Source: Terriglobia bacterium
Lineage (GTDB): Bacteria; Acidobacteriota; Terriglobia; 2-12-FULL-54-10
Length of the DNA: 64,000 bases
Reading direction: 5' to 3'
Assembly (NCBI GenBank): GCA_963666975.2
Contig: CAXVYR010000002.1
Span: forward strand, 267,436-331,435
Shown here: positions 27,097-59,533 of the stretch, one piece after another
Numbering within the stretch: position 1 is the first letter of the stretch
How the letters are laid out: every line of letters begins with the position of its first letter
Notes under the pieces: model-generated
What the model was told of the DNA's origin: nothing
Seen by the model: the letters and a program-made list of their open reading frames with translations, nothing else
Databases searched by the model: none
Made by a program: the position numbers and the translations under genes

Positions 27097-27103
27097 GTGA
27101 ACG

Positions 27104-35049: not shown

Positions 35050-35154
35050 CCGGTCGCATTAACCGGTCTGCGGGTCCTATTACCGCCCATCGAACGACAA
35101 CGCCAATTGCTGAAACGTTGCCCAGGCTCATGGGGCCTTCGGAGAGGTGCATCA

Positions 35155-37566: not shown

Positions 37567-37690
37567 TGACCGGCCCCCGGTTTTTTGAGCCAAGTTGAAA
37601 GTGAGTTTTGCGGCAGATGAGGGGCCCTGGATTTTTGTACCAGTTTCAGGGTGAGTTTTGGGCTGTTTCCAGGCCTTTCAGATTGCAGCT
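37567..37690. mobile_element. Two juxtaposed IS3-like terminal segments, near-identical to ends present at 22182..22648
   Basis: 37567..37617 matches 22182..22232, beginning 'tgaccggcccccggttttttga'. 37618..37690 is the reverse complement of 22526..22598, with only about 1-2 mismatches by eye. Confidence 0.7.
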
Positions 37691-37726
37691 AGACCAATTT
37701 CACCGTTAGTGTATAGCATATCCACA

Positions 37727-39202: not shown

Positions 39203-41095
39203 TCACCATTGCGCGGCCTGCCCACCAAGCTCTACCTGGGCTCCGGTCGGCTCCATGTTCCACTCGCGTGCCAAAGAGGGAACCAGGTGTACCAGCTTGC
39301 CACCCACCATCGTCATCAAAACCCGCAGCTTGGGGATGTCATCCACCGGAACCGTCAGGTAGTCCCTATTGAGTACTGCCAAGTCCGCCCATTTACCCGG
39401 CTCGAGCGACCCCAGCACATCTTCCCGCAGCGTCCCGTAAGCCGCCCAGAGCGTCGCCGACTTCAACATCGCTTCCCGGCTGATTGCCTGCTGAGGAGCT
39501 ATGACGTTCCCGTTCATATCCTTTCGGGTTATGCCGGAATAGAGAACCTGGAAGTAGGTTAGGTCCGTGTATCCAATCGGCCGGTCAATTTCCACACTAT
39601 TCATGATCCCGGCATCATAGAGAGCTTTGCGCGGAACTACTTGGTTGGCTCCTCGCTCCCCATAATCGTCCATGATCTTCTTTCCGCTTCCTTCCCAAAT
39701 GTAGAAGTCCCAACCACTGCCCATAATGCCCAGCTTCTGGTAGCGCGGAATCTGGTCCGGGCGGGGATACATTGCCATATGCTCAGTGACGTGGCGCTTG
39801 GCGCGGATCTCATCCAGTGTCATGCCAGCATCTTTGCTGGCCTTTTCGATGATGTCGAGGATGAGATCAATTTCCCCGTCGGCCATGATGTGATCCCCGG
39901 CCAGCCGTCCGCCAGCTTTTATATATTCATAAAGCGCTCGCGAAACATCGGGGTTGGTATATTGACACTTTCTTTCGCGCTGCTTCACTTTCGGCGAAGT
40001 GCCGGGGAGCTTGCTGCAATTCATGCCCATGTTCGGAACCATTCCTGTCGTCCAGAAGTAGTCCGAGCCATGTCCGAGCCGGCTGGCTTGAGCCCGGACA
40101 AAGTATGGATCGAAAAAGAAATCATTTCGGTACGGCCAAAACCAAGCCCACGCAAACCGGATAGACATCTGGCCCTGACGGGACAGCGAGTCATAAGCTT
40201 GAATCGCACCTCCCGTATAGAGCGCCGTGGCATTGAGGGTCTGCCCGTAACCCGCCATCCAGGACAGTCCCAGCCGATAAATTTCCTTCAGAACCTCGGG
40301 GGGGTAAAGAACATCTTGTTCGGGATAGCGATAGCAGACGGCACAGTAACCAGTTTTTTCAACGCTTCCTTCCCCCGCGCGGGAACCCACCAAGTCATCC
40401 AGAGTTCCTGCCTCCGGCTCTGGAAGAAAATAATTTATTTGATCTCCATAGAATTTCTTGGTTTCTTCCAGCGCCCTCTGGTTCAACACCGCCCCGACAA
40501 AACCACCGCGCACAATCACCGGATTATCGGGAGCAGCCAGATCCAGGTGCTCCTTGGTGATCTGCTGCCCTAAAATACCCATAATCTGGTCTCGCCACTG
40601 ATATTGTTTCCCATACAGCATACTGATCCGAATCCACTGGCCGGGCTTGGCCTTGAGGACCGCCTCCTCCAAAACACGCGGAAATTTTTGCAACTGCTCG
40701 TCGGGTGGATCTTCCAAGAACCGCTCGATGTGTATATCGTCGGTGACCACTTTTTTGATTATATACGGATTCAGCAGGTCCCAGTCCTGCGGGTGATCGT
40801 GCGTCGCCCCGAAGCCCGGAGTTACCGTCCTCCCCTTCAGGTCAATGGATCGGGTGCCGCTGCCCGCCAGGCGGCGAACCTCGGCGTTGCTTCCCACCGC
40901 GACGATTTTTCCATCCCGAATTGCAATCGCCTGAGCAATGGTCCCTATGTTCGCATTGACCTCATGGTTGTCCACCGTCACGATCTTTCCATTGTGCAGA
41001 ATCGTATCCGGCGCCTGCTGGGCCCAAACGGGGCTCTGTGCAGCCCAGACAACACACACCAATATCGCCATTCCCCAAAAGAGTGGACTCTTCAT
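39203..41095 (-). CDS. Secreted Amidohydro_3 hydrolase, array paralogue 1
   Basis: SD AAGGTGGTG. Signal peptide ...VWAQQ. 'ATHDHPQDW', 'AGDHIMADGEID', 'KRHVTEHMAMYP', 'GWDFYIWEG'. Tail 'GAQVELGGQAAQW'. Confidence 0.9.
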   Translation of the reverse strand: MKSPLFWGMAILVCVVWAAQSPVWAQQAPDTILHNGKIVTVDNHEVNANIGTIAQAIAIRDGKIVAVGSNAEVRRLAGSGTRSIDLKGRTVTPGFGATHDHPQDWDLLNPYIIKKVVTDDIHIERFLEDPPDEQLQKFPRVLEEAVLKAKPGQWIRISMLYGKQYQWRDQIMGILGQQITKEHLDLAAPDNPVIVRGGFVGAVLNQRALEETKKFYGDQINYFLPEPEAGTLDDLVGSRAGEGSVEKTGYCAVCYRYPEQDVLYPPEVLKEIYRLGLSWMAGYGQTLNATALYTGGAIQAYDSLSRQGQMSIRFAWAWFWPYRNDFFFDPYFVRAQASRLGHGSDYFWTTGMVPNMGMNCSKLPGTSPKVKQRERKCQYTNPDVSRALYEYIKAGGRLAGDHIMADGEIDLILDIIEKASKDAGMTLDEIRAKRHVTEHMAMYPRPDQIPRYQKLGIMGSGWDFYIWEGSGKKIMDDYGERGANQVVPRKALYDAGIMNSVEIDRPIGYTDLTYFQVLYSGITRKDMNGNVIAPQQAISREAMLKSATLWAAYGTLREDVLGSLEPGKWADLAVLNRDYLTVPVDDIPKLRVLMTMVGGKLVHLVPSLAREWNMEPTGAQVELGGQAAQW

Positions 41096-41123
41096 AATTC
41101 ACCACCTTAAATTTAAGCAGTTT

Positions 41124-41167
41124 GCTAAAAAAGACAGGCCGGACGGAATGCCGCTTCCGTCCGCCTG
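41124..41167 (-). terminator. Intrinsic-terminator-like hairpin between paralogues 2 and 1
   Basis: On the minus strand, the stem caggcggacggaa / ttccgtccggcctg (one bulge, loop gcggca) is followed by tcttttttagc. It lies about 70 nt after the paralogue 2 stop and only about 30 nt before the paralogue 1 start. Confidence 0.55.
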
Positions 41168-41237
41168 CGGACCCGTACCCTCAAACCCCGAAATCCAACT
41201 GATCACTGCCCCGACTACCTCGTTCTACCAGGAAAAC

Positions 41238-43109
41238 CTACCATTGCGCAGCGAGTCCGCCAAGCTCCACTTGGGCTCCGGTCGGCTCCATGTTCAACTC
41301 GCGGGCCAGAGAGGGAACCAGATGTATCGTTTTGCCACCCACCATGGTCATCAAAACCCGCAGCTTGGGGACCTCCTCTACCGGAACCGTCAGGTAGTCC
41401 TTGTCGAGCACCACCAGGTCCGCCCATTTACCCGGCTCCAGCGACCCGAGCACATCTTCCCGCTTCACCCCATAGGCCGCCCAGAGCGTCGCCGACTTCA
41501 ACATCGCCTGCCGGTCCACCGCCTGTTGCGGCGCGGTTACCTTCCCGTTCTGATCCTTCCGGGTAATACCGGAATAGAGAACCTGGAAGTAGGTCAGGTT
41601 GGTATATCCGATGGGCCGGTCAATCTCAACACTGTTCATGATCCCAGCCTCATAGAGACTCTTGCGAGGCACCACCTGCATCGCGCCCCGCTCGCCGTAA
41701 TCCCGCAGGACCTGCTGCGCGCTTCCTTCCCAGATGTAGAAGTCCCAGCCGCTGGTCATCATGCCCAACTCTTGATACCGGGGGATTTGGTCCGGTCGCG
41801 GATACATAGCCATATGTTCGGTGATATGGCGCTTAGCCCGAATCTCCTCCGGCGTCATGCCGCCATCTCGGCTCGCCCTCTCGATGGTGTCCAAGACCAG
41901 ATCAATTTCTCCATCTCCCATTTGATGATCTCCGAACAGCCGTCCGCCCGCCTTGATGTATTCATAAAGAGCTTTCACCATTTTAGGATTGGCGAACCGG
42001 CATTTGGCTTCCCGCTGCTTGACCTCCGGGGAAGTGCCGGGCAGCTTGCTGCAGCCGCCGCCCATCATCGAAGTCATGCCGGCCACCCAGAAATGATCCG
42101 TGCCCGTGTCCTCCCGGCTGACGGCGGCTTGCACAAAATAAGGATCAGAGAACAAGTCATTTCGAAACGGCCAGAACCAGCCCCAGGGAAGCCGAATGGC
42201 CATCTGATCCCGGCGATCCAGGCTGCTGTAGGCGCGAATCGCGCCTCCCGTGTACAGCGCCGTCGCATTGAGGGTGACCCCATACCCCCCCATCCAGGAC
42301 AACCCCAGGCGGTAGATATCCTGCAATACCTTGGACGGGTAGAGCACGTCCTGTTCGACATACCGATAGCAGGTGGAACAAACCCCCGATTGATCGAAGT
42401 CCGTCGGGGCGCCCCCGAGATCCCCCAGCGGCGAGTAGAGAAACTTGTCCCATTCCCCCGCATAGAACTTTTTCGTCTCCTCAATCGCTCTCTGGTTCAT
42501 CAAAAGTCCGACAAACCCCCCGCGCACAATCACTGGATTCTGAGGAGCCGCCAAGTCCAGCATCTGTTTGTTAATCTGCCGGCCTAAAAACGCTGAAACC
42601 TCCTCTCTCCACCTGTATTCCTCTCCGTACAGCATACTAATCCGAATCCATTGGCCGGGCCTGGCCTTCTGGACTGCCTCCTCCAAAACCCGCGGAAATT
42701 GTTGCAACTGTTGCTGAGGAGGATCGTTCAAGAAACGCTCGATGTGCATATCGTCGGTGACTACTTTCTTGACGATATACGGGTTCAGGGGGTCCCAGTC
42801 CGCCGGATGGTCGTGCGTCGCGCCAAAGCCCGGAGCCACCATCCTCCCTTTCAGATCCAGGGACTGCGTGTTGCTGCCCGCCAGGCGGCGAATCTCGGCG
42901 TTGCTGCCCACCGCGACGATTCTTCCATCCCGGATTGCAATCGCCTGAGCAATGGTCCCCAAATTGGAATCGACTTCATGGTTGTCCACCGTCACGATCT
43001 TTCCATTGTGCAGAATCGTATCCGGCGCCTGCTGGGCCCAAACGGAGCTCTGTGCAGCCCAGATAACACAAACAAGTATCGCAACTCCAAAAAGACGTGT
43101 GCTTTTCAT
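41238..43109 (-). CDS. Secreted Amidohydro_3 hydrolase, array paralogue 2
   Basis: SD AAGGTGGT. Same motifs ('ATHDHPADW', 'FGDHQMGDGEID', 'KRHITEHMAMYP'). Tail 'GAQVELGGLAAQW'. Confidence 0.9.
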   Translation of the reverse strand: MKSTRLFGVAILVCVIWAAQSSVWAQQAPDTILHNGKIVTVDNHEVDSNLGTIAQAIAIRDGRIVAVGSNAEIRRLAGSNTQSLDLKGRMVAPGFGATHDHPADWDPLNPYIVKKVVTDDMHIERFLNDPPQQQLQQFPRVLEEAVQKARPGQWIRISMLYGEEYRWREEVSAFLGRQINKQMLDLAAPQNPVIVRGGFVGLLMNQRAIEETKKFYAGEWDKFLYSPLGDLGGAPTDFDQSGVCSTCYRYVEQDVLYPSKVLQDIYRLGLSWMGGYGVTLNATALYTGGAIRAYSSLDRRDQMAIRLPWGWFWPFRNDLFSDPYFVQAAVSREDTGTDHFWVAGMTSMMGGGCSKLPGTSPEVKQREAKCRFANPKMVKALYEYIKAGGRLFGDHQMGDGEIDLVLDTIERASRDGGMTPEEIRAKRHITEHMAMYPRPDQIPRYQELGMMTSGWDFYIWEGSAQQVLRDYGERGAMQVVPRKSLYEAGIMNSVEIDRPIGYTNLTYFQVLYSGITRKDQNGKVTAPQQAVDRQAMLKSATLWAAYGVKREDVLGSLEPGKWADLVVLDKDYLTVPVEEVPKLRVLMTMVGGKTIHLVPSLARELNMEPTGAQVELGGLAAQW

Positions 43110-43222
43110 AAATTACCACCTTGAATTATAAGCAGTTTGCTAAGAAAGCCAGGCCGAACGGAATGTCCGCTTCCGCTTGGCAGTTTGTGACTTCAAACCT
43201 CCGAGAGCCAACTAACCTTTAG

Positions 43223-43316
43223 TAGGTTGTTGAAAAACACCATTTACCCGCTCCCTCACCCCTCGGCTTCGCTCGGGGCAGGTTTCGCGGCCCGGACTAT
43301 ACACGAACTGTGAAAG
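43223..43316 (-). repeat. Dispersed intergenic repeat, copy 3, inserted in the paralogue 3/2 spacer
   Basis: The reverse complement reads 'tttcacagttcgtgtatagtccgggccgcg...gtgagggagcgggtaaatggtgtttttcaacaacc'. It is absent from the homologous spacers 41096..41237 and 45235..45388. Confidence 0.7.
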
Positions 43317-43353
43317 TGCTTTAATTACTCGTTCCAATTCCTCGCCGGAAAAC

Positions 43354-45234
43354 TTACCATTGCGCTGCTGCCCCCCCCAGTTCTACCTGGGCTCCGGTCG
43401 GCTCCATACCCCATTCGCGGGCAAGGGATGGAACTAGATGGATCGGTTTGCCGCCCACCAGGGTCAGCAGCACGCGCAGTTTGGCAATCTCTTCCACTGG
43501 AACCGTCAGGTAGTCCTTGTCGAGCACCACCAGGTCCGCCCATTTGCCCGGCTCCAGCGACCCTAGCACATCTTCCCGCATCACCCCGTAGGCCCCCCAG
43601 AGAGTCGCCGACTTCAACATCGCCCGCCGGTCCACCGCCTGTTGCGGCGCGGTTACCTTCCCGTTCTGATCCTTCCGGGTGATGCCGGAATAGAGAACCT
43701 GGAAGTACGTCAGGTCGGTGTATCCGATGGGCCGGTCAATCTCGACACTGTTCATGATCCCAGCCTCATAGAGAGCCTTGCGAGGCACCACCTGCATCGC
43801 GCCCCGCTCGCCGTAATCCCGCAGGACCTGCTGCGCGCTTCCTTCCCAAATATAGAAGTCCCAGCCGCTGGTCATTATGCCCAGCTTTTTGTATCGCGGG
43901 ATCTGGTCCGGCCTCGGATACATGGCCATGTGCTCGGTGACATGGCGCTTGGAATGAATCTCTTCCAGCGTCATGCCGGCATCTTCGCTGGCCTTCTCGA
44001 TGATGTCCAGGATGAGATCAATTTCCCCATCCGCCATCACGTGATCTCCGGCCAGCCGTCCGCCCGCCTTGATGTATTCATAAAGAGCCTTCGAAACTGT
44101 CGGGTCGGCAAATCCGCACTCCATTTCCCGCTCCTTGACCTCCGGGGAAGTGCCGGGCAGCTTGCTGCAGTCCATCCCCATGTGAGAAGTCATTCCACTC
44201 GACCAGAAATAGTCCGAGCCCGTGCCCACGCGGCTGACTTCAGCTTGAAGAAAGTAGGGGTCCGAAAAGAAGTCGTTTCGATAAGGCCAGAACCAGCCCC
44301 AGGCAAAGCGAATGGCCATCTGCTCCCGGCGATCCAGGCTGTTGTAGGCGCGAATCGCGCCACCTGTGTACAGCGACGTCGCGTTGAGGGTAACCCCGTA
44401 CCCCCCCATCCAGGTCAGCCCCGCACGGTAGATTTCCCGCAACACCTCGGGCGGGTAGAGCACATCCTGTTCCACCTGCCGGTAGCAGACGACACAGGTT
44501 CCTGTTTTCTCAAAGCTTTCCAGCGTTACACCCATACCCACAAGGTCTTCCAGCGGATGGTAAGAAAACTTCTTCGCCTCCCCTGCATAAAACTCTTTTA
44601 CCAAGTCAATGGCTTTTTGGTTCAACAAAGCTCCGACAAATCCGCCTCGGACCAGCACCGGATTGTTGGGAGCAGCCAGATCCAGCATCTGTTTGTTAAT
44701 CTGCCGCCCCAGAAAGCCTGAGATTTCATTTCCCCACCGGTATTCTTTCCCATAAAGCAGACTAATTCGGATCCATTGGCCGGGCTTGGCCTTGCGGACT
44801 GCCTCCTCTAATACCCTCGGAAATTGTTGCAACTGTTGATCGGGCGGATCGTTCAAAAACCGCTCAATGTGCATATCATCGGTGACCACTTTTCCTACGA
44901 TATGCGGGTTCAGCGGGTCCCAGTCCTGCGGGTGATCGTGCGTGGCCCCAAAGCCCGGAGCCACCATCCTCCCTTTCAGATCCAGGGACTGCGTGTTGCT
45001 GCCCGCCAAGCGGCGAATCTCGGCGTTGCTGCCCACCGCGACGATTTTCCCATCCCGGATTGCAATCGCCTGAGCAATGGTCCCCAAATTGGAATCGACT
45101 TCATGGTTGTCCACCGTCACGATCTTTCCATTGTGAAGAATTGTATCCGGCGCCTGCTGGGCCCGAACGGTGCTCTGTGCAGTCCAGATGACACACACTA
45201 ATACCGCAACTCCCCAAAAATGTAGGCTCTTCAT
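43354..45234 (-). CDS. Secreted Amidohydro_3 hydrolase, array paralogue 3
   Basis: SD GAGGTGGTG. 'ATHDHPQDW', 'AGDHVMADGEID', 'KRHVTEHMAMYP'. Tail 'GAQVELGGAAAQW'. Confidence 0.9.
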   Translation of the reverse strand: MKSLHFWGVAVLVCVIWTAQSTVRAQQAPDTILHNGKIVTVDNHEVDSNLGTIAQAIAIRDGKIVAVGSNAEIRRLAGSNTQSLDLKGRMVAPGFGATHDHPQDWDPLNPHIVGKVVTDDMHIERFLNDPPDQQLQQFPRVLEEAVRKAKPGQWIRISLLYGKEYRWGNEISGFLGRQINKQMLDLAAPNNPVLVRGGFVGALLNQKAIDLVKEFYAGEAKKFSYHPLEDLVGMGVTLESFEKTGTCVVCYRQVEQDVLYPPEVLREIYRAGLTWMGGYGVTLNATSLYTGGAIRAYNSLDRREQMAIRFAWGWFWPYRNDFFSDPYFLQAEVSRVGTGSDYFWSSGMTSHMGMDCSKLPGTSPEVKEREMECGFADPTVSKALYEYIKAGGRLAGDHVMADGEIDLILDIIEKASEDAGMTLEEIHSKRHVTEHMAMYPRPDQIPRYKKLGIMTSGWDFYIWEGSAQQVLRDYGERGAMQVVPRKALYEAGIMNSVEIDRPIGYTDLTYFQVLYSGITRKDQNGKVTAPQQAVDRRAMLKSATLWGAYGVMREDVLGSLEPGKWADLVVLDKDYLTVPVEEIAKLRVLLTLVGGKPIHLVPSLAREWGMEPTGAQVELGGAAAQW

Positions 45235-45388
45235 AATTCACCACCTCGAATTGTAAGCAGTTCGCTAAGAAAGTCAGACCAAACGGAATGCCGCTTCCGT
45301 CCGCCTGCAGACCGTGCTTTCAAACCTCGAAATCCAACGGATTTCTGGCCCGGCTATCTCGGTTCTACCAGGGTTCTACCAGGAAAAC

Positions 45389-47266
45389 CTACCATTGCGC
45401 AGCCGGTCCGCCGAGTTCTACCTGAGCCCCCGTGGGTTGCATGCCTAACTCGCGGGCCAGGGATGGAACCAAATGGACCACTTTGCCGCCCACCATAGTC
45501 ATCAGGACCCGAACATTCAGAATGTCATCCACGGGAATGGTCAGGTAGTCTCTGTCCAATATCACCAGGTCTGCCCATTTATTGGGCTCCAGGGAGCCCA
45601 TGCGATCCTCGCGCATAGCATAATAAGCTCCCCAAATCGTCGCCGACTTGAGTATGGTTTCGCGGTTCACCGCCTGATTGGGGGCCGTTATATTGCCATC
45701 CTGATCCTTCCGGGTAATCCCTGCATAGAGGACTGTGAAGAAAGTCAGGTCGGTGTATCCAATGGGCCGGTCAATTTCGATGCTTGTCCTCACGCCGGCA
45801 TCGAGCAGACTCTTCCGCGGGATCACCCATTGTGCCGCCTCCTCTCCATAGTCCCTCAATACCTCCTGCCCTCTTCCTTCCCAAATGAACAGGTCCCAGC
45901 CGCCCGTCTGTATACCCAGGTTCTTGATCCGAGGGATCTGGTCGGGACGAGGATTCATCCCCATATGGTCATAGGTGTGCCGCTTCGCCCGAATCTCCTC
46001 TATTGTCATGCCCGCGTCTTTGCTGGCCTGCTCAATAATATCCAGAACGTGATCGATCTCCTTGTCGCCGACCATATGCGCTCCGGCGTAGCGGCCGCCG
46101 TCCTTGATGTATGCATACAAGATATCCCGATTCTCCTTGCCGCTGGGAGTATCCGGATCAAACTTGCAACTACCTTCCCGCTGTTTCACTTCGGGGGAGG
46201 TGCCCGGAAGCGTGCTGCAATTTCTGCCGTAGTCGGATGGGATGGCTCCGTTCAGCCAGAAGTAATCTGATCCTCTGCCCTTCATGGTGATTATAAGCCT
46301 GCGAAGATAGGGGTCGAAGAGGATATTCTTCCGTTCCGGCCAGAAGTAAGTCCAGGGAAGCCGGAGCGACATCTCTCCGCTGCGGTCCAGCGCATCGTAG
46401 GCCGCAATCGCCCCGGCCGTATACATATTCGATGCGTTCATGGTGACTCCATAGCCTGCCCACCAGGATGTCCCCAAACGGTAGATTTCCTGCAACACAT
46501 CCGGCGGGTAGAGCACGTCCTGTTCAAACTCCCGGTAACAGACCGCGCAGGTTCCGGTTTCCTCCATGCGCGCGTTCACCGGCCTGTCGATCATGTCAAA
46601 CTTTTCCCATTCCGCACCGTAATACTTCTTTACTTCGTCAATGGCATTCTGGTTTGCCACCATCCCGACAAAGCCCGCACGAACGATCACCGGATTATTG
46701 GGAGCAGCCAGATCCAGCATTTGCTTGGTTATCTGGCGCCCGAGATACCCGGAGATCCTCGTCCTCCCCCGATACTCTTTCCCGAACAGCATGCTGATCC
46801 GAATCCATTGGCCGGGCCGGGCCTTCCGGACTGCCTCCTCGAGAACTCGCGGAAACCTCTGGAGTTGCTGCTCGGGGGAATCTTCCAGGAACCGCTCCAG
46901 GTGCAGATCGTCTGTGACCACCTTTTTTACGATGTAGGGATTCAACGGGTCCCAGTCGGTGGGGTGATCGTGTGTGGCTGCCATGCCCGGCAGCACCGTC
47001 CGCCCCTTCAGGTCAATGCTCCGGGTATTGGGGCCCGCCAAGGCCCGAACCTGAGCGTTGGTTCCCACGGCCAGGATCGCATCTCCCCGGACAGCCAAAG
47101 CCTGAACGATGGCGCCTATGTTTGCATTGACCTCATGGTTGTCCACCGTCACGATCTTTCCGTTGTAGAGAATGGTATCCGGCGCTTGCTGGGCCCGGAG
47201 GGGACTCTGCACAGCGCAAAGGACACACATTGTTACCCCAACCCGCCAAATCCATCGACTTATCAT
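45389..47266 (-). CDS. Secreted Amidohydro_3 hydrolase, array paralogue 4
   Basis: Start taken at MISRWIW (ATG 47266, SD AAAGG). 'ATHDHPTDW', 'GAHMVGDKEIDH', 'KRHTYDHMGMNP'. Tail 'GAQVELGGPAAQW'. Confidence 0.85.
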   Translation of the reverse strand: MISRWIWRVGVTMCVLCAVQSPLRAQQAPDTILYNGKIVTVDNHEVNANIGAIVQALAVRGDAILAVGTNAQVRALAGPNTRSIDLKGRTVLPGMAATHDHPTDWDPLNPYIVKKVVTDDLHLERFLEDSPEQQLQRFPRVLEEAVRKARPGQWIRISMLFGKEYRGRTRISGYLGRQITKQMLDLAAPNNPVIVRAGFVGMVANQNAIDEVKKYYGAEWEKFDMIDRPVNARMEETGTCAVCYREFEQDVLYPPDVLQEIYRLGTSWWAGYGVTMNASNMYTAGAIAAYDALDRSGEMSLRLPWTYFWPERKNILFDPYLRRLIITMKGRGSDYFWLNGAIPSDYGRNCSTLPGTSPEVKQREGSCKFDPDTPSGKENRDILYAYIKDGGRYAGAHMVGDKEIDHVLDIIEQASKDAGMTIEEIRAKRHTYDHMGMNPRPDQIPRIKNLGIQTGGWDLFIWEGRGQEVLRDYGEEAAQWVIPRKSLLDAGVRTSIEIDRPIGYTDLTFFTVLYAGITRKDQDGNITAPNQAVNRETILKSATIWGAYYAMREDRMGSLEPNKWADLVILDRDYLTIPVDDILNVRVLMTMVGGKVVHLVPSLARELGMQPTGAQVELGGPAAQW

Positions 47267-47435
47267 AACTTTTAACCTTTCAGCTATTGTGGGCAGCCTA
47301 CTAAGAAAACCAGGCTGGCAGGATGCCGTTCCCACCAGCCTGGCGAATTGTGACTTCAAAGCTCCCCGGCTAACTCCCGGCTAACTCGATTGTTAATCTC
47401 TCGGTTAATTTCTTGCTACCGTCCTCAGGGGAAAC

Positions 47436-49301: not shown

Positions 49302-49475
49302 AAATTTACCTCATCCTTTCATGTCGCAGCCTTTTAAAAATATGCGAGAAGTCGTGGACATCTTTATCCTTGTCCTTAGATTGGCAAGAGGCCCCCGCAT
49401 AGGGAGTACGTGGAAGAGTTGGAGAATGCGGAGACGTATCGTTCCCTTATCTGAGAGACCTCTAGCCGAAGCGTT

Positions 49476-49509
49476 GGAAAAGTGTAGGAGGAAGCCGAAG
49501 CTTCCTCCT
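49476..49509 (-). terminator. Rho-independent terminator after paralogue 6
   Basis: Perfect 10-bp stem aggaggaagc/gcttcctcct with a tetraloop. On the minus strand it is followed by acacttttcc. It lies 25 nt downstream of the stop at 49534. Confidence 0.65.
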
Positions 49510-49533
49510 TGCAAAACACCCTACTTACCATAG

Positions 49534-51396
49534 CTACCATTTGGAAGGTAATCCGCCGAGCTCCACCTGTGCCCCCATGGGCTGCACCCCGATCTCGCGT
49601 GCCATCGAGGGAACCAAGTGCACGATCTTGCCTCCTGTCATGGTCATCAACACCCGCAGCTTCGGAATGTCATCCACGGGGATGGTCAAGTAATCTTTGT
49701 CTAAAACGATCAGGTCTGCCAACTTGCCGGGCTCCAACGAGCCGAGGTCATCTTCCCTGAATACATAATAGGAACCCCAGGTTGTGGATACCTTCAGCAT
49801 CGTTTCCCGGTCCACCCGCTGCTCGGGAGCAATCACATTTCCGTTCATGTCCCGGCGGGTAATTCCGGTGTGAAGGACCTGGAACATGTTCAGGTCGGTG
49901 TAACCCAAAGGCCGGTCCAACTCCAGCGTATTCATAATCTGGTTGGTAAGCAACCTCTTCCGGGGTGTCACCCATCCCGCAGCTTTTTCCCCGTACTCGC
50001 GCAGGATTCTCTCCCCGTTGCCTTCCCAGAGATAGAAGTCCCAGTTGCCCACCATCATACCCAGATTCTTGATGCGCACCGCCTGATCATCCCTGGGAGA
50101 CATCTGTCCATGATCGTAAGCATGCCGTTTGTCCCGAATCTGCGCCAGCGTCATCCCGGCGTCCTTGCTCCCCTGCTCGATGACATCCAGCAGGTGATCA
50201 ATGTCCTTGTCCCCGCCGGTGTGGATGAGCGCGATCCGTCCGCCTGCCTTGACAAAGTTGTAAGTCCATTTGCGCATATCCGAACCGGGGGCGAGGGTGC
50301 AACCCGGCTCTCTTGCCTTCACATCCGGGGAAGTGCCCGGCAAGGTGGAGCAGTCAAAGGTCATCATGGGAGAGGCGCCGACAAACCAGAAGTAATCCGT
50401 GCCTTCTCCCTGGCGAGTCGCGATATCAGCCAAAAAGTAGGGATCTTCGAAAGCTTTGTTAAAGGGCGGCCAGAAATATCCCCAGGGCAGGCGTATGGGC
50501 ATTCTGTCTTCCCTTTGCAAGGTCCGGTAGCCGCGGATCTGCGCCGGGGCGTACAACATAGTGCCGTCGGTGGTGACGCCGTAGCCAGCCAGCCAAGACA
50601 GGCCATACTCGTTCATCTTCGTCCATACTTCGGGGTGATCCTTGTAGTAGATGATGTCCGGCTCGATGAAGCGATAGATGACAGAGCCAGTGCCTGTCTC
50701 CTCGAAATTCCGTTCGGTGGCGAAAATATCCCCGACCCCGTCTCCCCAGAATTTTCTCATCTCCTCCAGGGCCCGTTCGTTGACCACCGCTCCCACAAAG
50801 CCGGCGCGGACCAGCACCGGATTATTCGGAGCCGCCAAGTCCAGATGCTGCTTGGTAATCTGGTTCCCCAACAGCGCTGTAATCTCTGCCCTATACCGAT
50901 ACTGTCTTCCAAAGGTCAGCGTAATGCGAACCCATTGACCCGGCTTGGCCGCACGGACCGCCTCCTCCAAAACACGCGGGAACTTCTGCAACGTCTCATC
51001 AGGAGGATCCTCCAAAAACCGTTCAATGTGGATATCGTCGGTCACCACTGCTTTTACAATGTATGGATTCAGCGGGTCCCAGTCCTGCGGGTGATCATGC
51101 GTATTGATGATGCCCGGCATAACCATCCGCCCTTTTAGGTCAATCACCTTCGTGCCCGATCCCGCCATGGCTCGAATCCGGGTATTGTTGCCCACGTGCA
51201 AGATTTTTCCATCCTTGATATGGATGGCTTGCGCAATGGTGCCCAGGTTCGAGGTGAACGATACGTTATCCACTGTCACAATTTTCCCGTTGTAAAGAAT
51301 CGTATCCGAGCTTTGTTGGGCGCTCACCGGGCTACCTAGAAACGGTAACCAGACGCTGATCCACAACACAAAAGCAGATAACTTATTTATACTCAT
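49534..51396 (-). CDS. Secreted Amidohydro_3 hydrolase, array paralogue 6
   Basis: 'NTHDHPQDW', 'LIHTGGDKDIDH', 'KRHAYDHGQMSP'. Tail 'GAQVELGGLPSKW'. Confidence 0.9.
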   Translation of the reverse strand: MSINKLSAFVLWISVWLPFLGSPVSAQQSSDTILYNGKIVTVDNVSFTSNLGTIAQAIHIKDGKILHVGNNTRIRAMAGSGTKVIDLKGRMVMPGIINTHDHPQDWDPLNPYIVKAVVTDDIHIERFLEDPPDETLQKFPRVLEEAVRAAKPGQWVRITLTFGRQYRYRAEITALLGNQITKQHLDLAAPNNPVLVRAGFVGAVVNERALEEMRKFWGDGVGDIFATERNFEETGTGSVIYRFIEPDIIYYKDHPEVWTKMNEYGLSWLAGYGVTTDGTMLYAPAQIRGYRTLQREDRMPIRLPWGYFWPPFNKAFEDPYFLADIATRQGEGTDYFWFVGASPMMTFDCSTLPGTSPDVKAREPGCTLAPGSDMRKWTYNFVKAGGRIALIHTGGDKDIDHLLDVIEQGSKDAGMTLAQIRDKRHAYDHGQMSPRDDQAVRIKNLGMMVGNWDFYLWEGNGERILREYGEKAAGWVTPRKRLLTNQIMNTLELDRPLGYTDLNMFQVLHTGITRRDMNGNVIAPEQRVDRETMLKVSTTWGSYYVFREDDLGSLEPGKLADLIVLDKDYLTIPVDDIPKLRVLMTMTGGKIVHLVPSMAREIGVQPMGAQVELGGLPSKW

Positions 51397-51669
51397 TGCT
51401 TCAGTACCTTTCCTAAACTAAGCTGCAGGTTGTTCGCCGCCTTGCAGAAAAATCGCCGGGCAATCGGAGAGATTTGCCCGTAGCCGGACTAAAGGACGCT
51501 CAGAAAGTATACCACTAATCCATGTCTTTTAGCGCATTAGGGCAGAGGAGATTTCTTCCCCGATCCCCGCTTGGATAGATGCCGAAATTCCTGTCTGCTT
51601 CGCCGGCGTATTGGAAGAGGCTGCTCAAGCACAAACCGAGGCCGGCACATTAAGGAAAGAATTTTTCAT

Positions 51670-53550
51670 TTACCACTGAGCAGCAGGACCAAGTAAAGCT
51701 TGGGCACCGGTCGGTTGCATGCCAATTTCCCGAGCCACCGACGGAACCAAGTGAACGGCTTTGCCTCCCACCACGGTCATGAGCACTCGGATGTTCTCAA
51801 TGTCGTTTTCGGGTATTGTCAAGTAATCCCGATCGAGCACGATGAAATCGGCCCACTTCCCGGGTTCAAGCGAACCCAGTTCGTTCTCTTTCAGGATGTA
51901 ATACGCACCCCAGGTCGTCGCCGTTTTCAGGGCGAGTTCCCGGCTGATCTTTTGATTCTGCCCGTAGACTTTGCCATCCCACGCCTTCCGATTGATCACA
52001 CGCGCCAATGTCCAGAAGATGGTCAGATTGGTTGTGGACAATGCCCGATCGACTTCAAAGCCGCTGGGGATTTGGGCCTCGATCAACGACTTTTTCGGAA
52101 CCACCCACTCCAGCGCTTTTTCCCCATAGGTTTCCAATATGCCAGGAGAGGCCTGATAGATTTCAAAAGCATCTCCCCCCAGGACCAGACCCAATTCCTT
52201 AATGAGCGGCAGCTGATCCGGCCGGGGGGACATCACATTGTGGTCGAACGTGTGTCTTTTGGCGCGGATCTGTTCTGGTGTGAAACCAGCCTCCTTGCTG
52301 GCTTTTGAAATAATATCGATTATGTTGTCGATGTCTCTGTCACCCACAGTATGGGTTACCGCGTACCGGCCACCCATTTTCACCCACTGATACAGCATTT
52401 CGTAGTTTCTGGTTCCGGGATCATAAGCGCATGTTCGACGGCGTTGGGCTGCTTGCTCCGACAAGTCCACACGGGGCACCAAAGTGGTGCATCCAGCACC
52501 TACGGTTTGGGCGCCCCGGGAGCCGCTGTGCCAAAAATAGTCATTCCCGTTGCCGTTCATGGAAATCAGCGCACTCACGTAGTACTCGTCATTATTGAAA
52601 AAGTCTTCGCGCCAATTCCAGGCCCACATGTTCCGGACCGGCATCTGCCCGCTTCGGGACAGGTCGTCAAACACCCTCAGGTTGGCCGGATCGTATGCCT
52701 GCGAGGCAAAGGCGGTCATTCCATAGCCCGCCCACCAAGTCAGGCCCAGGCGCTGGACCTCCTTCAACTCTTTATAGTGGTCCCGCATGACCACATCACT
52801 GAACATCCAGCGCATGGGGTTTGCCCCACCGGCCCCAGTCTCATGATCAATTTGACTGGCTACATCCTCCGGGAATGTCCGGTCAGCTATTTCCAGCGCC
52901 TTGGAATTCAAAACGAAACGAGTAAAAGCGTCCCGCAACAGGACCGGATTGTTGGCAGCCACGGCATCCAGTTGTGCTTTTGTGATCTTGAGAGGGGTAC
53001 CGAACAAGCTATCGTCGAACTGGCCGAATCCGCCATTCCCTCCCGTGCTGTACTCATAGTTCTTACCCAAGGGGAAGACCAGGTAAACCCACTGTCCCGG
53101 CTTGGCCTTGCCGAGAGCTTCCCGCAAGATTGCGGGATACGCCTGGAGTTGTTCCTGGGGACTGCCCTCCAGAACCCGTGTAACTACAATATCGTCCGTG
53201 AGGACATGCCGGATGACGTAGGGATTGACGGGGCTCCAATCAAAAGGGTGTTCGTGAACGCTGATCAGTCCGGGCAGAACCGTGCGGCCCTTCAGGTCAA
53301 TCACCCGTGTGTTGGGCCCGGCCATAGCCCGAATCTCGGCGTTGTTGCCCACATGCAGGATCGTATCCCCTCTGACGTGCATGGCCTGCGCAATGGTTCC
53401 GAGGGAAGAGGTGTAGCTCGTGTCGTCCACCGTGACAATTTTCGCGTTGAAGTAAATCGTGTCGGAATCTTGTTGTGCCTGGCTGACGCGCCCAGACAAC
53501 AGCAAGATACTCAGCAGAAGCAAAAAACACCCGCTCCTTCTGTTACGCAT
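51670..53550 (-). CDS. Secreted Amidohydro_3 hydrolase, array paralogue 7 (most divergent)
   Basis: Start taken at MRNRRSG (ATG 53550, SD AAGGAAG). 'SVHEHPFDW', 'VTHTVGDRDIDN', 'KRHTFDHNVMSP'. Tail 'GAQALLGPAAQW'. Confidence 0.85.
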   Translation of the reverse strand: MRNRRSGCFLLLLSILLLSGRVSQAQQDSDTIYFNAKIVTVDDTSYTSSLGTIAQAMHVRGDTILHVGNNAEIRAMAGPNTRVIDLKGRTVLPGLISVHEHPFDWSPVNPYVIRHVLTDDIVVTRVLEGSPQEQLQAYPAILREALGKAKPGQWVYLVFPLGKNYEYSTGGNGGFGQFDDSLFGTPLKITKAQLDAVAANNPVLLRDAFTRFVLNSKALEIADRTFPEDVASQIDHETGAGGANPMRWMFSDVVMRDHYKELKEVQRLGLTWWAGYGMTAFASQAYDPANLRVFDDLSRSGQMPVRNMWAWNWREDFFNNDEYYVSALISMNGNGNDYFWHSGSRGAQTVGAGCTTLVPRVDLSEQAAQRRRTCAYDPGTRNYEMLYQWVKMGGRYAVTHTVGDRDIDNIIDIISKASKEAGFTPEQIRAKRHTFDHNVMSPRPDQLPLIKELGLVLGGDAFEIYQASPGILETYGEKALEWVVPKKSLIEAQIPSGFEVDRALSTTNLTIFWTLARVINRKAWDGKVYGQNQKISRELALKTATTWGAYYILKENELGSLEPGKWADFIVLDRDYLTIPENDIENIRVLMTVVGGKAVHLVPSVAREIGMQPTGAQALLGPAAQW

Positions 53551-53607
53551 GGTCACTTCCTTAAACTTCAGATGTAATGAACGGAGTTTGTAAACCGATT
53601 CTCTGTG

Positions 53608-53649
53608 CAAAAAAGGTGGGCAAAGATTTGGCTAACCAAATCTTTGCCC
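53608..53649 (-). terminator. Rho-independent terminator after the TonB-dependent receptor gene
   Basis: Perfect 14-bp stem gggcaaagatttgg/ccaaatctttgccc with a 4-nt loop. On the minus strand it is followed by accttttttg. It lies 19 nt after the stop at 53668. Confidence 0.75.
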
Positions 53650-53667
53650 AAGCAAGGCCCAATCCAA

Positions 53668-56600
53668 TCAGAAGGCGAACTTCAACCCGAACTGGATCTG
53701 CCGTGTCGGCAGGCCGGGGAGGGTTTGTGAGATCACTCCGGCGCCACCCCGATCAATTTGCGCAAACGGGGGTCGGAAGTGGGCAGTGTTGGTGAGGTTG
53801 AAGAACTCCGCCCGAAACTCAAAGTTTCGTTCCTCGCCAAAGGGGAAATTTTTGACTATCGACAAGTCTAAGTTACGGAGTCCCGGACCGATGAGCGTGT
53901 TTCTGCCCGTGGTCCCGTAGAATCCCGTCGTTTGCGGTACGAAGGAACTGGGGTCAAAGTACTGATCGATACTTCCCCCCGTCGGGTTATTGTCGGCCCC
54001 CTGTACGAGATCCGGGCGGGTGCTGTGAATGATCGCGCCATTATTGGATCGGTTGGTACCCATTCTTACCGTAAACGGGTTGCCCGGCGATAGCTTCACG
54101 ATTCCATTTAATCGCCAGCCGTTAATCAATCCTCTGGCGAATAGGTTATCGAAGTCGCCGGTGGGAAACTCGTAACCAAAACTGGTCACAAAGTTGTGTC
54201 CGATGTGATAACTAGCCAAGCTGCGATCGTTCTTGTGGTCATCCGGGTCCTGAGAGCCACCGACCCCATTGGTAGCGGACGATATTGTATCCCATCGATC
54301 AAAACTCTCATCGATAGTCTTGGACCAGGTATAAGCGACCGCCACTTGAATTCCCGACTGGAAGCGGCGATTCAAATTCACTTGTAACGAGTTGTAAAAC
54401 GACTGCGCCCAACTGGATTGCCGTGCATCCCAAATAACGCTGGAATTTCGACGGACTGTGGTGCCGCCGGCGCACCCATCCATTGGTTGAAAGCACCTGC
54501 GGCCATCAGAAAACGTCCCCGGTTCCTTAGTGTTGGCAGCTCTCAGAAAGTCCAGGTGATTTCCTCTGGACCCTGCGTAAGCCACTGTCAATGAAGTGCC
54601 CGGTATTAGCTCGCGCTGCAGCGTCAGGTTGTACTGCATGAGGTAGGCGTGGTCGCGGTCATAATCCATTGTCTGAACTCCCGGCCTTCCGGCAGCGCGA
54701 GGGTCTATCCCTCGGAAGACTCCCAAGAAGGTCGGGTTAGTGACGTTCCCAATGGTGTAAATGGGAGGTTGGCGAACCGCCGTGATGAACCAAGTGTTGG
54801 AAAGCATATGCATTCGGAAGGTTCCGAACCCCCCGCGCAGAGCGGTCTTGCCGTCTCCTTTCAAATCCCAGGCGAAGCCGACGCGCGGCTGAATATTGAT
54901 GGCCTGCGAGGCGTTCTTATAGTACGGTCCGATGGTGGGCTCTAGAGCCCGTACGTGCCGAAAGTTTGCTAAACGGTTATGATTTTCTGTTGGAACCGTG
55001 GACATCTCCCATCGCACGCCCAAGTTCAAAGTGAAGCCCGGTTTCACTTGCCAACTATCATCGATAAACGTCCCAATCATCCACTGGCGCATACTCCGGA
55101 CCGCGGCGCCCCTGGGGTCTCCACTCCCCAAGGCACCCTGCCATAGATCCGGCATGCCTTGCAAGAACGCCACCACATTGGGAAATCGGTAGGCTCCTCC
55201 CAAATTCTGGGGTGCGGCGAGATTGCTCTGATATCGCTTGAGGAGCGCTCCAAATTTAAGCTGGTGTGACCCTTGGGTGGTAGTCAGGTCGTCCTGGTAA
55301 TGGAAGTTGTTTGCTATGTAGATCTTCGGCAAGTTGGTAGCAGTCCCAATAGACGTCAGAGCGCCACCCAGGAAACCGATGCCGGCACTTTGGCCAAAGG
55401 GGAGCCCGGTGGGCGGATTAAAGGAAGGCAGGCCCTCCGCGAAAAGCGGTTCGTCGTCCACATTGTAGTTCATGCGGGTGAAGCCAACCCTAGCCGTATT
55501 GATCCATGTGGGAGAGAAGATGTGGTTCCACTCCGCCGTAGCGTACTGCCATCTGTTTCTTCCCAAGCCCTCGGCTATAGCGATGTTATTACTCGGAAAT
55601 TTCTGGGTGGAGTGGTCAAAGGTGTAGCGGACAAAGAAATTATCGGAATCCGAGAAGCGGTGATCCACGCGGGCCATCCAATAAAATTGATCGATCGGCT
55701 CGCTAAAAGAGCTTACAAACTGTGCTGTGCCATCCCCAAAATTTCTCCCATTCGCCTGCGGCGTGAGAGCGATGAACGGCGCGATATCCGGAGCGACACC
55801 GACATTCCCACCTGCCGAATCCGGAAGGATACCCATCCGGGCGTTGGCATCCAGGACTCTCCCTATGACGGCTTCGCCCCTGCGTTGCCGCAAAAGTTCA
55901 ACCGTCGAAAAGAAGAACGTCCGGTCTTGGATAACGGGCCCTCCCACAGCGCCCCCGAACTGGTTGCGCTTAAACCCTGGCCTTTCCTTGCCGGCGGCAT
56001 TGAGGAAATAGTCGTTGGCATCCAACTGGCTGTTGCGGTGAAATTCGAACAACGAGCCGTGAATCGAATTGGTGCCGGACATCGTGACCGAATTGACTAC
56101 CGCTCCGCCCTGGCTGGGGTGGGCGGCGCTGTAGCTATTGGTCAACAGAGAAAACTCTCGAACAGCTTCGATGCCCAATCCGCCGCCCGTCACTGCTCCT
56201 GGGGTTTGACGGTGAACATCCATGACCTCCGTTCCATCCACCAAGTACAGATTGGCGCTCACCCTGGCCCCGCTTACGGAAATTCTTTTTCCGGAACCGG
56301 TGCCGGTGTTTTGCCGAGTCGTACCTCCCGTGCTCAATGCCTGATTCGCGCCCGTTTGCAGGAGCACAAGCTGGGTAAAATCGCGGCCATTCAAGGGCAA
56401 ATTGCGAATCTGTTCATCGTCAACCAGAGCCGAAAGAGTGGAGGTTGTGGTCGCCACCACGGGAGCTTCTCCTGTTACCTCCACACTCTCCGTGACCGCC
56501 CCTACGCGGAGCGAGATATTGACGGTCGCTTCCAGGCCAACCGTTAATCTGATCCCTGGCCGAACAGCAGCTTGAAATCCCTGCAGTTCCACTCTCAGTT

Positions 56601-56847
56601 CATAGGTTCCAACCGAAAGCAGCGGCAGGTGATAGACACCTCTGGCGTCTGTCTCCGCGCTGCGCGTGGCCCCGGTGTTTTCATTTGTGGTGGTCACAGC
56701 CGCCCCAGGAATGACTGCCCCGGTGCCGTCGGTAACCGTGCCGGAAAGCGTTGCGCTGGTTACTTGGGCATGCCCGATAGAGAAGGGGAGCACCAAAAGA
56801 AGCGTCAACAGAATCGGAGTGAAACGCAAAATCCGCCGAGTAGACAT
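53668..56847 (-). CDS. TonB-dependent outer-membrane receptor with N-terminal CarboxypepD_reg domain
   Basis: Start taken at MSTRRILRF (ATG 56847, SD GGAGGT). 'ATLSGTVTDGTGAVIPGAAVTTTN...GTYELRV'. Plug-like 'VDDEQIRNLPLNGRDFTQLVLLQTGA'. Terminal '...QFGLKFAF'. Confidence 0.85.
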   Translation of the reverse strand: MSTRRILRFTPILLTLLLVLPFSIGHAQVTSATLSGTVTDGTGAVIPGAAVTTTNENTGATRSAETDARGVYHLPLLSVGTYELRVELQGFQAAVRPGIRLTVGLEATVNISLRVGAVTESVEVTGEAPVVATTTSTLSALVDDEQIRNLPLNGRDFTQLVLLQTGANQALSTGGTTRQNTGTGSGKRISVSGARVSANLYLVDGTEVMDVHRQTPGAVTGGGLGIEAVREFSLLTNSYSAAHPSQGGAVVNSVTMSGTNSIHGSLFEFHRNSQLDANDYFLNAAGKERPGFKRNQFGGAVGGPVIQDRTFFFSTVELLRQRRGEAVIGRVLDANARMGILPDSAGGNVGVAPDIAPFIALTPQANGRNFGDGTAQFVSSFSEPIDQFYWMARVDHRFSDSDNFFVRYTFDHSTQKFPSNNIAIAEGLGRNRWQYATAEWNHIFSPTWINTARVGFTRMNYNVDDEPLFAEGLPSFNPPTGLPFGQSAGIGFLGGALTSIGTATNLPKIYIANNFHYQDDLTTTQGSHQLKFGALLKRYQSNLAAPQNLGGAYRFPNVVAFLQGMPDLWQGALGSGDPRGAAVRSMRQWMIGTFIDDSWQVKPGFTLNLGVRWEMSTVPTENHNRLANFRHVRALEPTIGPYYKNASQAINIQPRVGFAWDLKGDGKTALRGGFGTFRMHMLSNTWFITAVRQPPIYTIGNVTNPTFLGVFRGIDPRAAGRPGVQTMDYDRDHAYLMQYNLTLQRELIPGTSLTVAYAGSRGNHLDFLRAANTKEPGTFSDGRRCFQPMDGCAGGTTVRRNSSVIWDARQSSWAQSFYNSLQVNLNRRFQSGIQVAVAYTWSKTIDESFDRWDTISSATNGVGGSQDPDDHKNDRSLASYHIGHNFVTSFGYEFPTGDFDNLFARGLINGWRLNGIVKLSPGNPFTVRMGTNRSNNGAIIHSTRPDLVQGADNNPTGGSIDQYFDPSSFVPQTTGFYGTTGRNTLIGPGLRNLDLSIVKNFPFGEERNFEFRAEFFNLTNTAHFRPPFAQIDRGGAGVISQTLPGLPTRQIQFGLKFAF

Positions 56848-57105
56848 AGACTGACCTCCAACATTAGATAAGATTTTCAATGCTTTTACCAATTATACAT
56901 ATAAAATGTCAAGCTCTTTATCCTCATTTGTCGTTAGCATATGATATGTCCGGTGGAAATAGCAAGTGAAGTGTCCGCTTGGAAGGCGGTCTGGGGTAAG
57001 AGCATCTATCCAGGAGGTGGAGATGGAGTCATACCCGAGGGCCGCGATGGAGCGGGCAATGAAGATACAAGAAGTAATCTTTTCGTCCCTCCAGAGGGCA
57101 ATATC

Positions 57106-59338: not shown

Positions 59339-59533
59339 GCTATTTACCTCCTTTTTGAAATTCCGAAGGCCCGGGAAACGCTACATAATTCCCATCGGCC
59401 ACCCATGAAAGCATCCTCTCCAAACAGGCGGAAACCAACTATTGTCAGTTGAGTGGCTACAAGCTGGAAATGCCCGCGCTGAGAAAGGTGTCAGTGATCT
59501 TTGGGTCCTTCCTGAAGACAACAATGCAGGGCC

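Follow-up and report, generated by a model that had tools for sequence, protein, structure and literature searches.

In FusA/FusC, PfeA/PfeE and IroN/IroE, the gene for a TonB-dependent transporter (TBDT) is linked to that for a periplasmic enzyme acting on the imported cargo; FusA/FusC imports and cleaves ferredoxin, and PfeA/PfeE and IroN/IroE couple siderophore import to esterolysis. The polysaccharide utilisation loci (PULs) of Bacteroidota, with their SusC/SusD pair, place a TBDT with a CarboxypepD_reg-like N-terminus beside exported hydrolases that diversify by duplication. The TBDT Oar of Myxococcus xanthus combines a CarboxypepD_reg extension, a TonB box, a plug and a 22-strand barrel (PMC6434023), and Bilophila wadsworthia secretes the metallo bile-salt hydrolases BwBSH1/2, which are Amidohydro_3/YtcJ-like proteins (PMC13081902, a 2026 preprint). 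Here we describe a locus that shares features with each of these, located in a 64,000-nucleotide stretch of DNA from a Terriglobia bacterium (contig CAXVYR010000002.1, positions 267,436 to 331,435; hereafter the window), where the gene for an Oar-type TBDT is followed by seven tandem genes for exported YtcJ-like amidohydrolases.

The likeness to each described system is partial. The locus is not a PUL: unlike PULs it has no SusD-like lipoprotein, carbohydrate-active enzymes, or hybrid two-component or extracytoplasmic function regulator between 37.6 and 63.5 kb of the window, and its enzymes lack lipoboxes. Pairs of the FusA/FusC type have one enzyme of another fold (M16 protease or esterase), whereas here one to eight YtcJ-like amidohydrolases accompany the transporter and there is no iron link. 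Oar is likened to our transporter by architecture, although the popC gene is not described as adjacent to it and the amidohydrolase partner genes here are adjacent. BwBSH1/2 resemble the array enzymes in family and arrangement, being exported with a Sec signal peptide and encoded by tandem paralogues (two or three in Bilophila), and they hydrolyse N-acyl amide bonds. In contrast to the array enzymes, they are ~945 aa long, carry an extra C-terminal domain, are encoded beside a type II secretion system (T2SS) rather than a TBDT, are confined to gut Desulfovibrionaceae and depend on a carboxylated lysine (PMC13081902). An original prediction, made from the sequence of the window, stated that no described system of this form was known. 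This claim is overstated, since PULs, FusA/FusC and PfeA/PfeE precede it and tandem secreted Amidohydro_3 proteins occur in Bilophila (PMC13081902). The module is not a categorically new system; the design of a TBDT plus exported hydrolases is already known. Full-text literature searches on Acidobacteria together with TonB and amidohydrolase, YtcJ or COG1574 returned no description of this particular module, and a paper on Solibacter paralogues does not mention it.

We favor, at a probability of about 0.5, the reading that the locus is a nutrient-acquisition module of Acidobacteriota in which TBDT import is followed by hydrolysis in the periplasm, carried out by a panel of amidohydrolases with differing lids. 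The Oar-type transporter would carry amide-containing organic molecules across the outer membrane, and the Sec-exported amidohydrolases would cleave C-N bonds of this cargo in the periplasm. The enzymes would have their catalytic scaffold in common and differ in the lid segment that faces the substrate, of which each would bear one fixed variant; inner-membrane carriers encoded elsewhere would then take the products into the cell. The array would have grown by tandem duplication through unequal crossover, with partial homogenisation by gene conversion, and purifying selection would maintain it as a panel of distinct specificities. What the analysis shows is the fold of the proteins, their export signals, the conservation of catalytic residues, synteny that recurs between genomes and a pattern of evolution, and this reading starts from there. 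The array genes within 39203-53550 are labeled A1-A7 and two further paralogues in the window B1 and B2; orthologues are those of a close relative (locus L085), and L006 is a locus of a different Terriglobia species. The central features are as follows.

53668-56847, minus strand: Oar-type TBDT gene, 1059 aa
51670-53550, minus strand: A7, 626 aa, Amidohydro_3 (Pfam E 1e-37), exported; old subfamily; L085 orthologue 85 % identical
49534-51396, minus strand: A6, 620 aa, Amidohydro_3 (Pfam E 7.5e-38), exported; the copy that was modeled; L085 orthologue 94 % identical
47436-49301, minus strand: A5, 621 aa, Amidohydro_3 (Pfam E 3.5e-30), exported; L085 orthologue 93 % identical
45389-47266, minus strand: A4, 625 aa, Amidohydro_3 (Pfam E 9e-34), exported; L085 orthologue 94 % identical
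43354-45234, minus strand: A3, 626 aa, Amidohydro_3 (Pfam E 3e-32), exported; recent clade, 83 % identical to A2
41238-43109, minus strand: A2, 623 aa, Amidohydro_3 (Pfam E 1e-27), exported; recent clade
39203-41095, minus strand: A1, 630 aa, Amidohydro_3 (Pfam E 6e-31), exported; distal end of the array
50677-50784, minus strand: hypervariable, presumed lid segment (A6 residues 205-240), indel-rich, with a counterpart in every copy
2236-4119, minus strand: B1, Amidohydro_3 (Pfam E 6e-36); third subfamily, with its own clade in the tree; no adjoining transporter gene
61561-63492, minus strand: B2, Amidohydro_3 (Pfam E 4e-34); distant subfamily, clustering with the last gene of the L006 array

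The eight minus-strand open reading frames of the transporter and array were confirmed, and the ATG starts chosen in the original prediction yield homologous N-termini across the copies, each preceded at 5-12 nt by a purine-rich Shine-Dalgarno-like stretch, as had been claimed. The transporter and array genes all lie on one strand with spacers of 117-273 bp. Tandem paralogues are prone to assembly error, and a Bilophila assembly missed three tandem copies that were revealed on resequencing (PMC13081902); the seven copies might likewise be a mis-assembly of one or two genes. However, three long metagenome contigs, independent of one another and 439 kb, 237 kb and 4.5 Mb in length, encode the exact A6 protein, and each of them carries the transporter gene and the identical array of seven copies, and L085 holds 1:1 orthologues in the same order. 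The copies are also too divergent for such an origin, with protein-level differences of 17-56 % and pairwise synonymous divergence (dS) of at least 0.49. Because three contigs agree and the copies differ to this extent, an artefact is excluded for practical purposes, and we give mis-assembly a vanishingly small chance.

The transporter gene was predicted to encode a CarboxypepD_reg-type TBDT, and this is borne out by Pfam, with matches to PF13620 CarboxypepD_reg (E 1e-21) and OMP_b-brl_4 (E 5e-175), and by fold. The protein consists of a signal peptide, the CarboxypepD_reg domain (residues 33-113), a TonB-box-like motif, a probable plug and a barrel of ~22 strands. The putative TonB box, ESVEVTGEAP at residues 120-129, is kept in the family consensus and falls in a low-confidence, likely flexible segment of the model. 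A Pfam Plug match is sub-threshold (E 0.002; 19 vs 23.9 bits) and lies at the expected place, and precomputed Plug matches exist for many homologues of 36-50 % identity. The AlphaFold2 model, with a mean predicted local distance difference test score (pLDDT) of 82.5, has about 22 long strands, and Foldseek matched it to FusA, YddB, PirA, Cir, PfeA, BtuB and SusC (probability 1.0, E down to 4e-34) in alignments that cover nearly the full length of the matched TBDT chains. The NCBIfam SusC/RagA models did not match the transporter. We conclude that by architecture and fold it belongs to the Oar subclass of TBDTs.

The pairing of transporter and amidohydrolase genes recurs in other genomes. Both protein families were mapped on 79 loci with enzyme relatives, taken from one-genome-per-species contigs, and adjacency was counted for the 16 Oar-like genes found in 1.21 Mb of DNA from other organisms. 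Thirteen of the 16 (13/16) immediately adjoin an amidohydrolase gene or array and point in the same direction as it, compared with 5.2 under a conservative null (P about 4e-5), and the predicted combination of receptor and amidohydrolase arrays is thus conserved across Acidobacteriota. Copy number per transporter locus ranges from 1 to at least 8, and both gene orders occur. In L006 the transporter gene is followed by seven amidohydrolase copies. The closest transporter paralogue in the same genome (58 % identity, about 60 kb outside the window, L086 8001-17163) has two amidohydrolase genes downstream, forming a second transporter-to-amidohydrolase locus. Two amidohydrolase genes also follow a 60 % relative in another genome, a 59 % relative has a single copy 1.4 kb downstream, and at least four amidohydrolase genes lie upstream of a 41 % relative. 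Such conserved pairing suggests a candidate dedicated system for harvesting amide-linked compounds.

The amidohydrolases were also assigned as predicted: all nine paralogues (A1-A7, B1 and B2) match Pfam PF07969 (E 1e-27 to 1e-38), with scores of 98-132 bits against a gathering cut-off of 29.7. Neither the transporter nor any of the amidohydrolases scored above the cut-off of an NCBIfam model, PDB sequence searches returned solely uncharacterised or very distant relatives, and the homologues are named in their source databases only as 'amidohydrolase family' or 'YtcJ'. An AlphaFold2 model of A6 built from 53 homologues (pLDDT 95, predicted TM-score 0.92) has a (beta/alpha)8 barrel plus a composite beta-sandwich, as in 3ICJ and 3IGH. 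These were the nearest PDB structures by Foldseek (3icj E 8e-26 and 3igh E 1e-24; ~20 % identity; TM-score on target 0.78 for the best match), followed in the ranking by the mononuclear amidohydrolases HutI, TrzN and molinate hydrolase. Likeness to the YtcJ-like family (PF07969, COG1574, cd01300; 3ICJ and 3IGH of Pyrococcus, themselves uncharacterised proteins) thus consists of the Pfam match, the fold and five of six metal ligands. Unlike 3ICJ and 3IGH, the array enzymes are about 130 residues longer and possess a signal peptide, an enlarged variable beta-3/beta-4 insertion, two invariant cysteines and a C-terminal tail ending in Trp, and they lack the beta-4 lysine.

The N-terminus of each enzyme comprises a basic n-region and a hydrophobic h-region and closes with ...A-Q-Q, in line with the predicted cleavable signal peptide, which is of Sec type. 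Lipoprotein anchoring was ruled out, as there is no lipobox and the h-region Cys is missing in A5-A7, and Tat export is unsupported, the twin-arginine consensus being absent. Cysteines C349 and C366 are invariant in the 53 homologues, and together with the signal peptides they would fit an oxidising extracytoplasmic compartment.

Active-site conservation was nearly, though not entirely, as proposed. The motifs HxH, H..GD and RH..(E/D)H and the beta-8 Asp are kept, but the sixth ligand, the carboxylated lysine of beta-4, is absent from all nine paralogues. Residues H100, H102, H392, H429 and D494 (A6 numbering), which occupy the ligand positions of HxH on beta-1, His on beta-5 (H..GD), His on beta-6 and Asp on beta-8, do not vary among 53 sequences, and all seven copies have them. 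The column of the canonical 'G-x-K' lysine is A6 position 342, which here holds V, R, W, A, S and other residues, and there is no conserved Lys within residues 190-391 except at helix positions. Tyr335 was considered for this column and rejected, as aligning canonical relatives places the column at 342. In BwBSH1 the carboxylated Lys at the end of beta-4 is the essential sixth ligand, and the K373A variant is inactive (PMC13081902). Whole-gene ratios of nonsynonymous to synonymous divergence (dN/dS) among the paralogues are 0.13-0.27, and because the copies are under such purifying selection, the metal centre is probably a variant, mononuclear one rather than that of dead enzymes. Metal-dependent C-N bond hydrolysis is a predicted function. 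The clade represents an uncharacterised YtcJ-like branch that has lost the bridging lysine and is yet strongly conserved.

Divergence among the copies peaks in the indel-rich A6 residues ~205-240, with a secondary, weaker peak at residues 295-372. The main peak falls in the long beta-3/beta-4 insertion, and we presume that this segment forms a lid over the active site. Paralogues compared with one another are 20-51 % identical in the segment and differ by indels, whereas window and L085 orthologues are 81-94 % identical there, without indels, like the rest of the protein. Because paralogues differ where orthologues agree, each paralogue gained its own lid and then kept it, and the pattern may be read as a signature pointing to stable, distinct specificities. 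Ongoing hypervariation of the lid was ruled out, as the orthologues are conserved there. No positive selection could be demonstrated in the lid, where the ratio of nonsynonymous to synonymous differences (pN/pS) is below 1 and synonymous sites are near saturation. The original description of the paralogues as diversifying therefore applies to one segment and not to the genes as a whole, which show no gene-wide positive selection and are under overall purifying selection. The lids of A1-A4 (e.g. A1, about 40300-40420) and of the corresponding L085 proteins contain a CxxC motif, which A5-A7 lack; it could form an extra disulfide or a metal site.

We examined the intergenic regions for transcription signals, where the following elements were found.

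56883-56912, minus strand: promoter-like element TTGACA-N18-TAAAAG, 65 nt 5' of the transporter ATG; function inferred
53617-53650, minus strand: terminator-like hairpin in the transporter/A7 spacer, 15-bp stem plus T-run
47309-47344, minus strand: hairpin plus T-run in the A5-A4 spacer, dG -29.2 kcal/mol, z -6.5
41140-41163, minus strand: hairpin plus T-run in the A2-A1 spacer, dG -24.8 kcal/mol; belongs to a hairpin/Shine-Dalgarno module common to the spacers 5' of A1-A4

The promoter-like block and 5' leader of the transporter gene are kept between the window and L085, and the sequence farther upstream is unrelated. Directly after the transporter stop codon, the first hairpin has a folding free energy (dG) of -24.5 kcal/mol (z -5.4), and in its L085 counterpart (-19.1 kcal/mol) each arm has a 1-nt deletion that compensates for the other. 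There are strong hairpins ahead of A4 and A1 as well, hairpins occur in most intergenic spacers, and the A7-A6 and A6-A5 spacers are 86-87 % conserved. Generic promoter and terminator scans gave no enrichment over shuffles, and hairpins were retained only where individually strong and conserved; they may be terminators, attenuators or stabilisers. Given the conserved terminator-like hairpin behind the transporter gene and the hairpins behind most copies, the genes cannot be taken to form a single operon, although their co-orientation is clear. Rfam and tRNA scans of the window were empty, and hence there is no riboswitch clue to the substrate.

Several observations weigh against a nutrient-acquisition module. 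No binding protein, regulator or inner-membrane transporter is linked to the array; as originally predicted, the Pfam assignments from 37.6 to 63.5 kb include neither a regulator nor a SusD-like gene nor an inner-membrane transporter. No Lys occupies position 342 in any window paralogue or acidobacterial-clade homologue, and since the bridging carboxylated lysine is missing, the chemistry of these enzymes may differ from that of known YtcJ-like enzymes. Co-transcription of the transporter and enzyme genes appears doubtful, judging from the hairpins. One transporter relative (52 % identity) has no adjoining amidohydrolase gene, and many enzyme homologues have no adjacent transporter gene (e.g. 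L067, L009 and the B1 clade). In addition, an Oar-type TBDT is needed to export the protease PopC in Myxococcus (PMC6434023). The name uptake-plus-hydrolase battery, under which the locus was first put forward, is supported in its TBDT fold, exported enzymes and conserved pairing, but assumes the direction of import. It is this direction, along with the periplasmic location, the amide substrates and the functional coupling, that we infer.

Because many family members and the 52 % transporter relative stand alone, the pairing is facultative, although recurrent and non-random. The genes could share no more than a general scavenging regulon, with the enzymes acting on small amides or peptides that enter through porins and the transporter serving an unrelated substrate. 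The conserved hairpin after the transporter gene, which has its own promoter-like element directly upstream, the frequent absence of an adjoining transporter gene and the occurrence of both gene orders are all consistent with such a loose linkage. However, adjacency far exceeds the conservative random expectation. It is also kept in transporter relatives of 82 % to 41 % identity, among them two paralogues of one genome, which is hard to explain without functional coupling. We consider loose linkage rather unlikely.

The precedent of PopC raises the question of whether the transporter might instead be an outer-membrane gate that releases the Sec-exported amidohydrolases, which would then act extracellularly. 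The domain architecture appears to be the same as that of Oar, with a CarboxypepD_reg extension, a putative TonB box, a probable plug and a barrel (PMC6434023), the enzymes carry signal peptides without a lipobox, no T2SS genes lie nearby, and there is one transporter gene per one to eight enzyme genes in either order. A possible recognition element is a highly conserved, clade-specific C-terminal tail of ~27 residues, ...GAQVELGGxAAQW-COOH, which is missing from canonical YtcJ-like proteins and whose terminal Trp is at least 90 % conserved. In the A6 model, however, this tail is packed on the enzyme with high confidence. PopC is the sole experimental precedent and has no signal peptide, and nearly all characterised TBDTs import. 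Moreover, Acidobacteriota are rich in Oar-like genes, and the two intact genes and one fragment in the window are a better fit to nutrient uptake. We regard export as unlikely, and the same low probability applies to its specific form, in which the ...AAQW tail would be the recognition signal of a TBDT-dependent secretion system with a linked, expandable cargo array. If true, it would represent a new protein-secretion route, and the Myxococcus Oar/PopC case would become widespread in Acidobacteriota.

As had been noted by eye, divergence increases from the distal to the receptor-proximal copies, and the identity matrix reproduces this gradient: A1-A3 are 76-83 % identical to one another, A4 and A5 share ~65 % identity with A1-3 and 67 % between themselves, and identity to the remaining copies is ~58 % for A6 and 44-49 % for A7. 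In a distance tree, A1-A3 form a lineage-specific clade, A4 and A5 are akin to a triplet that expanded separately in L006, with A6 at the base of that group, and A7 belongs to an older subfamily common to several genomes, with B1 and B2 in further subfamilies. Both A6 and A7 are thus paralogues of old standing. A B2-type gene closes the L006 array, and B2 orthologues stand beside or within the arrays of other genomes. L085 holds 1:1 orthologues of A7, A6, A5 and A4 in order and an extra copy inserted within its A1-A3-like part, indicating that the proximal half is stable and that the distal end gains and loses copies. This extra copy (L085 16120-17985) has lost the second invariant cysteine (Cys366 to Arg) and may be decaying or diverging.

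One module of hairpin, T-run and Shine-Dalgarno sequence recurs in the spacers ahead of A1-A4, and the duplicated unit is therefore the gene plus its spacer, which is what unequal crossover would produce. Between A2 and A3, synonymous divergence is 0.10-0.15 in codons 21-100 and 481-580 compared with about 0.5-0.6 elsewhere, which indicates gene conversion. Repeated unequal crossover in situ, as originally proposed, is thus supported by the shared spacer module and the extra L085 copy, but does not account for all divergence, since A7 and the B2-type copies of other arrays belong to old subfamilies predating speciation. We conclude that the history of the array is one of birth and death. With a lid cassette particular to each paralogue and a scaffold that has been partly homogenised, it is a clear example of the evolution of a specificity panel.

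Few soil bacteria are as abundant as Acidobacteriota, whose very large sets of Oar-like transporters are almost without assigned substrates. The pairing offers a testable handle on the possible harvest of amide-bound organic nitrogen or carbon, or on the dismantling of metabolites made by other microbes. In the latter case, the TBDT would import amide-linked secondary metabolites of microbes such as hydroxamate or peptide siderophores, lipopeptides or depsipeptide antibiotics, and the enzyme panel would take them apart, by analogy with the siderophore-esterase pairs PfeA/PfeE and IroN/IroE. Molecules of this kind are typical TBDT substrates, and the Foldseek neighbors of the transporter include siderophore receptors. 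Exported hydrolases of ester or lactone type are encoded nearby, namely a BD-FAE double esterase (59534-61477) and a Vgb-lyase-like protein (10747-12639), and a GDSL lipase and a beta-lactamase-fold protein lie beside the L006 array. We found, however, neither a signal of iron regulation nor genes for siderophore biosynthesis nor a resistance context, and the neighbor associations come from few loci. We hold piracy or detoxification of this kind to be very unlikely, and it would be a substrate-level refinement of nutrient acquisition rather than a distinct mechanism.

Other genes accompany the arrays in related genomes. The genes 3' of the seven-copy array in L006 (16415-21076) encode the GDSL lipase, the beta-lactamase-fold protein and a NamZ exo-N-acetylmuramidase; they hint at scavenging of cell-wall or ester/amide material, and NamZ, at this single locus, hints at a link to peptidoglycan recycling. 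A block comprising a B2-type amidohydrolase, a double BD-FAE esterase and a glyoxalase-fold protein (58916-63492 in the window) is syntenic beside arrays in three related genomes (e.g. L085 1-4152 and L087 369-4921). In the L086 locus, a 282-aa protein with RNA_pol_A_CTD/Sigma70_r4 matches is encoded between the two amidohydrolase genes and is a possible regulator.

The borders of the array bear traces of rearrangement, of which two features stand out.

57416-58822, plus strand: truncated Oar-like transporter pseudogene, matching Pfam OMP_b-brl_4 profile positions 369-838 only (C-terminal barrel half)
37658-38704, plus strand: IS5-like transposase at the distal border of the array, Pfam DUF772 plus DDE_Tnp_1

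The pseudogene is oriented divergently from the intact transporter gene, and its 5' remnant holds a 133/146-bp tandem duplication at 57120-57353. On a strain contig (L002) the fragment is longer (531 aa) and a 423-aa HTH_23/28/32 transposase-like gene is inserted at this pseudogene. Between 37.6 and 63.5 kb, the Pfam-annotated neighbors of the array genes are an esterase, a glyoxalase-fold protein and transposases besides amidohydrolases. A second intact Oar-like transporter gene (17900-21160, minus strand) has no adjacent amidohydrolase gene and lies beside an IS1595-like transposase gene (21215-21877, plus strand).

The two genes named in the original prediction as other members of the amidohydrolase superfamily (333-2177 and 23741-25114) both encode Amidohydro_1 proteins, the former (minus strand) with a C-terminal TIG/CoaZ domain. 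The Vgb-lyase-like protein at 10747-12639 (minus strand) combines CarboxypepD_reg with a virginiamycin-B-lyase-like propeller, and in another genome propeller-lyase-like and Amidohydro_1-TIG/CoaZ genes adjoin each other (L089 5050-8834) near another transporter-amidohydrolase locus. Finally, the regions 25627-29934 and 33013-37002 contain a CoxG/flavoprotein/molybdopterin-hydroxylase cluster and, nearby, genes for a UbiD-like decarboxylase and for a PQQ-dehydrogenase that carries a cytochrome c domain; these genes appear unrelated to the array, and the initial ~180 residues of the large-subunit reading frame of the cluster fall outside any Pfam match.

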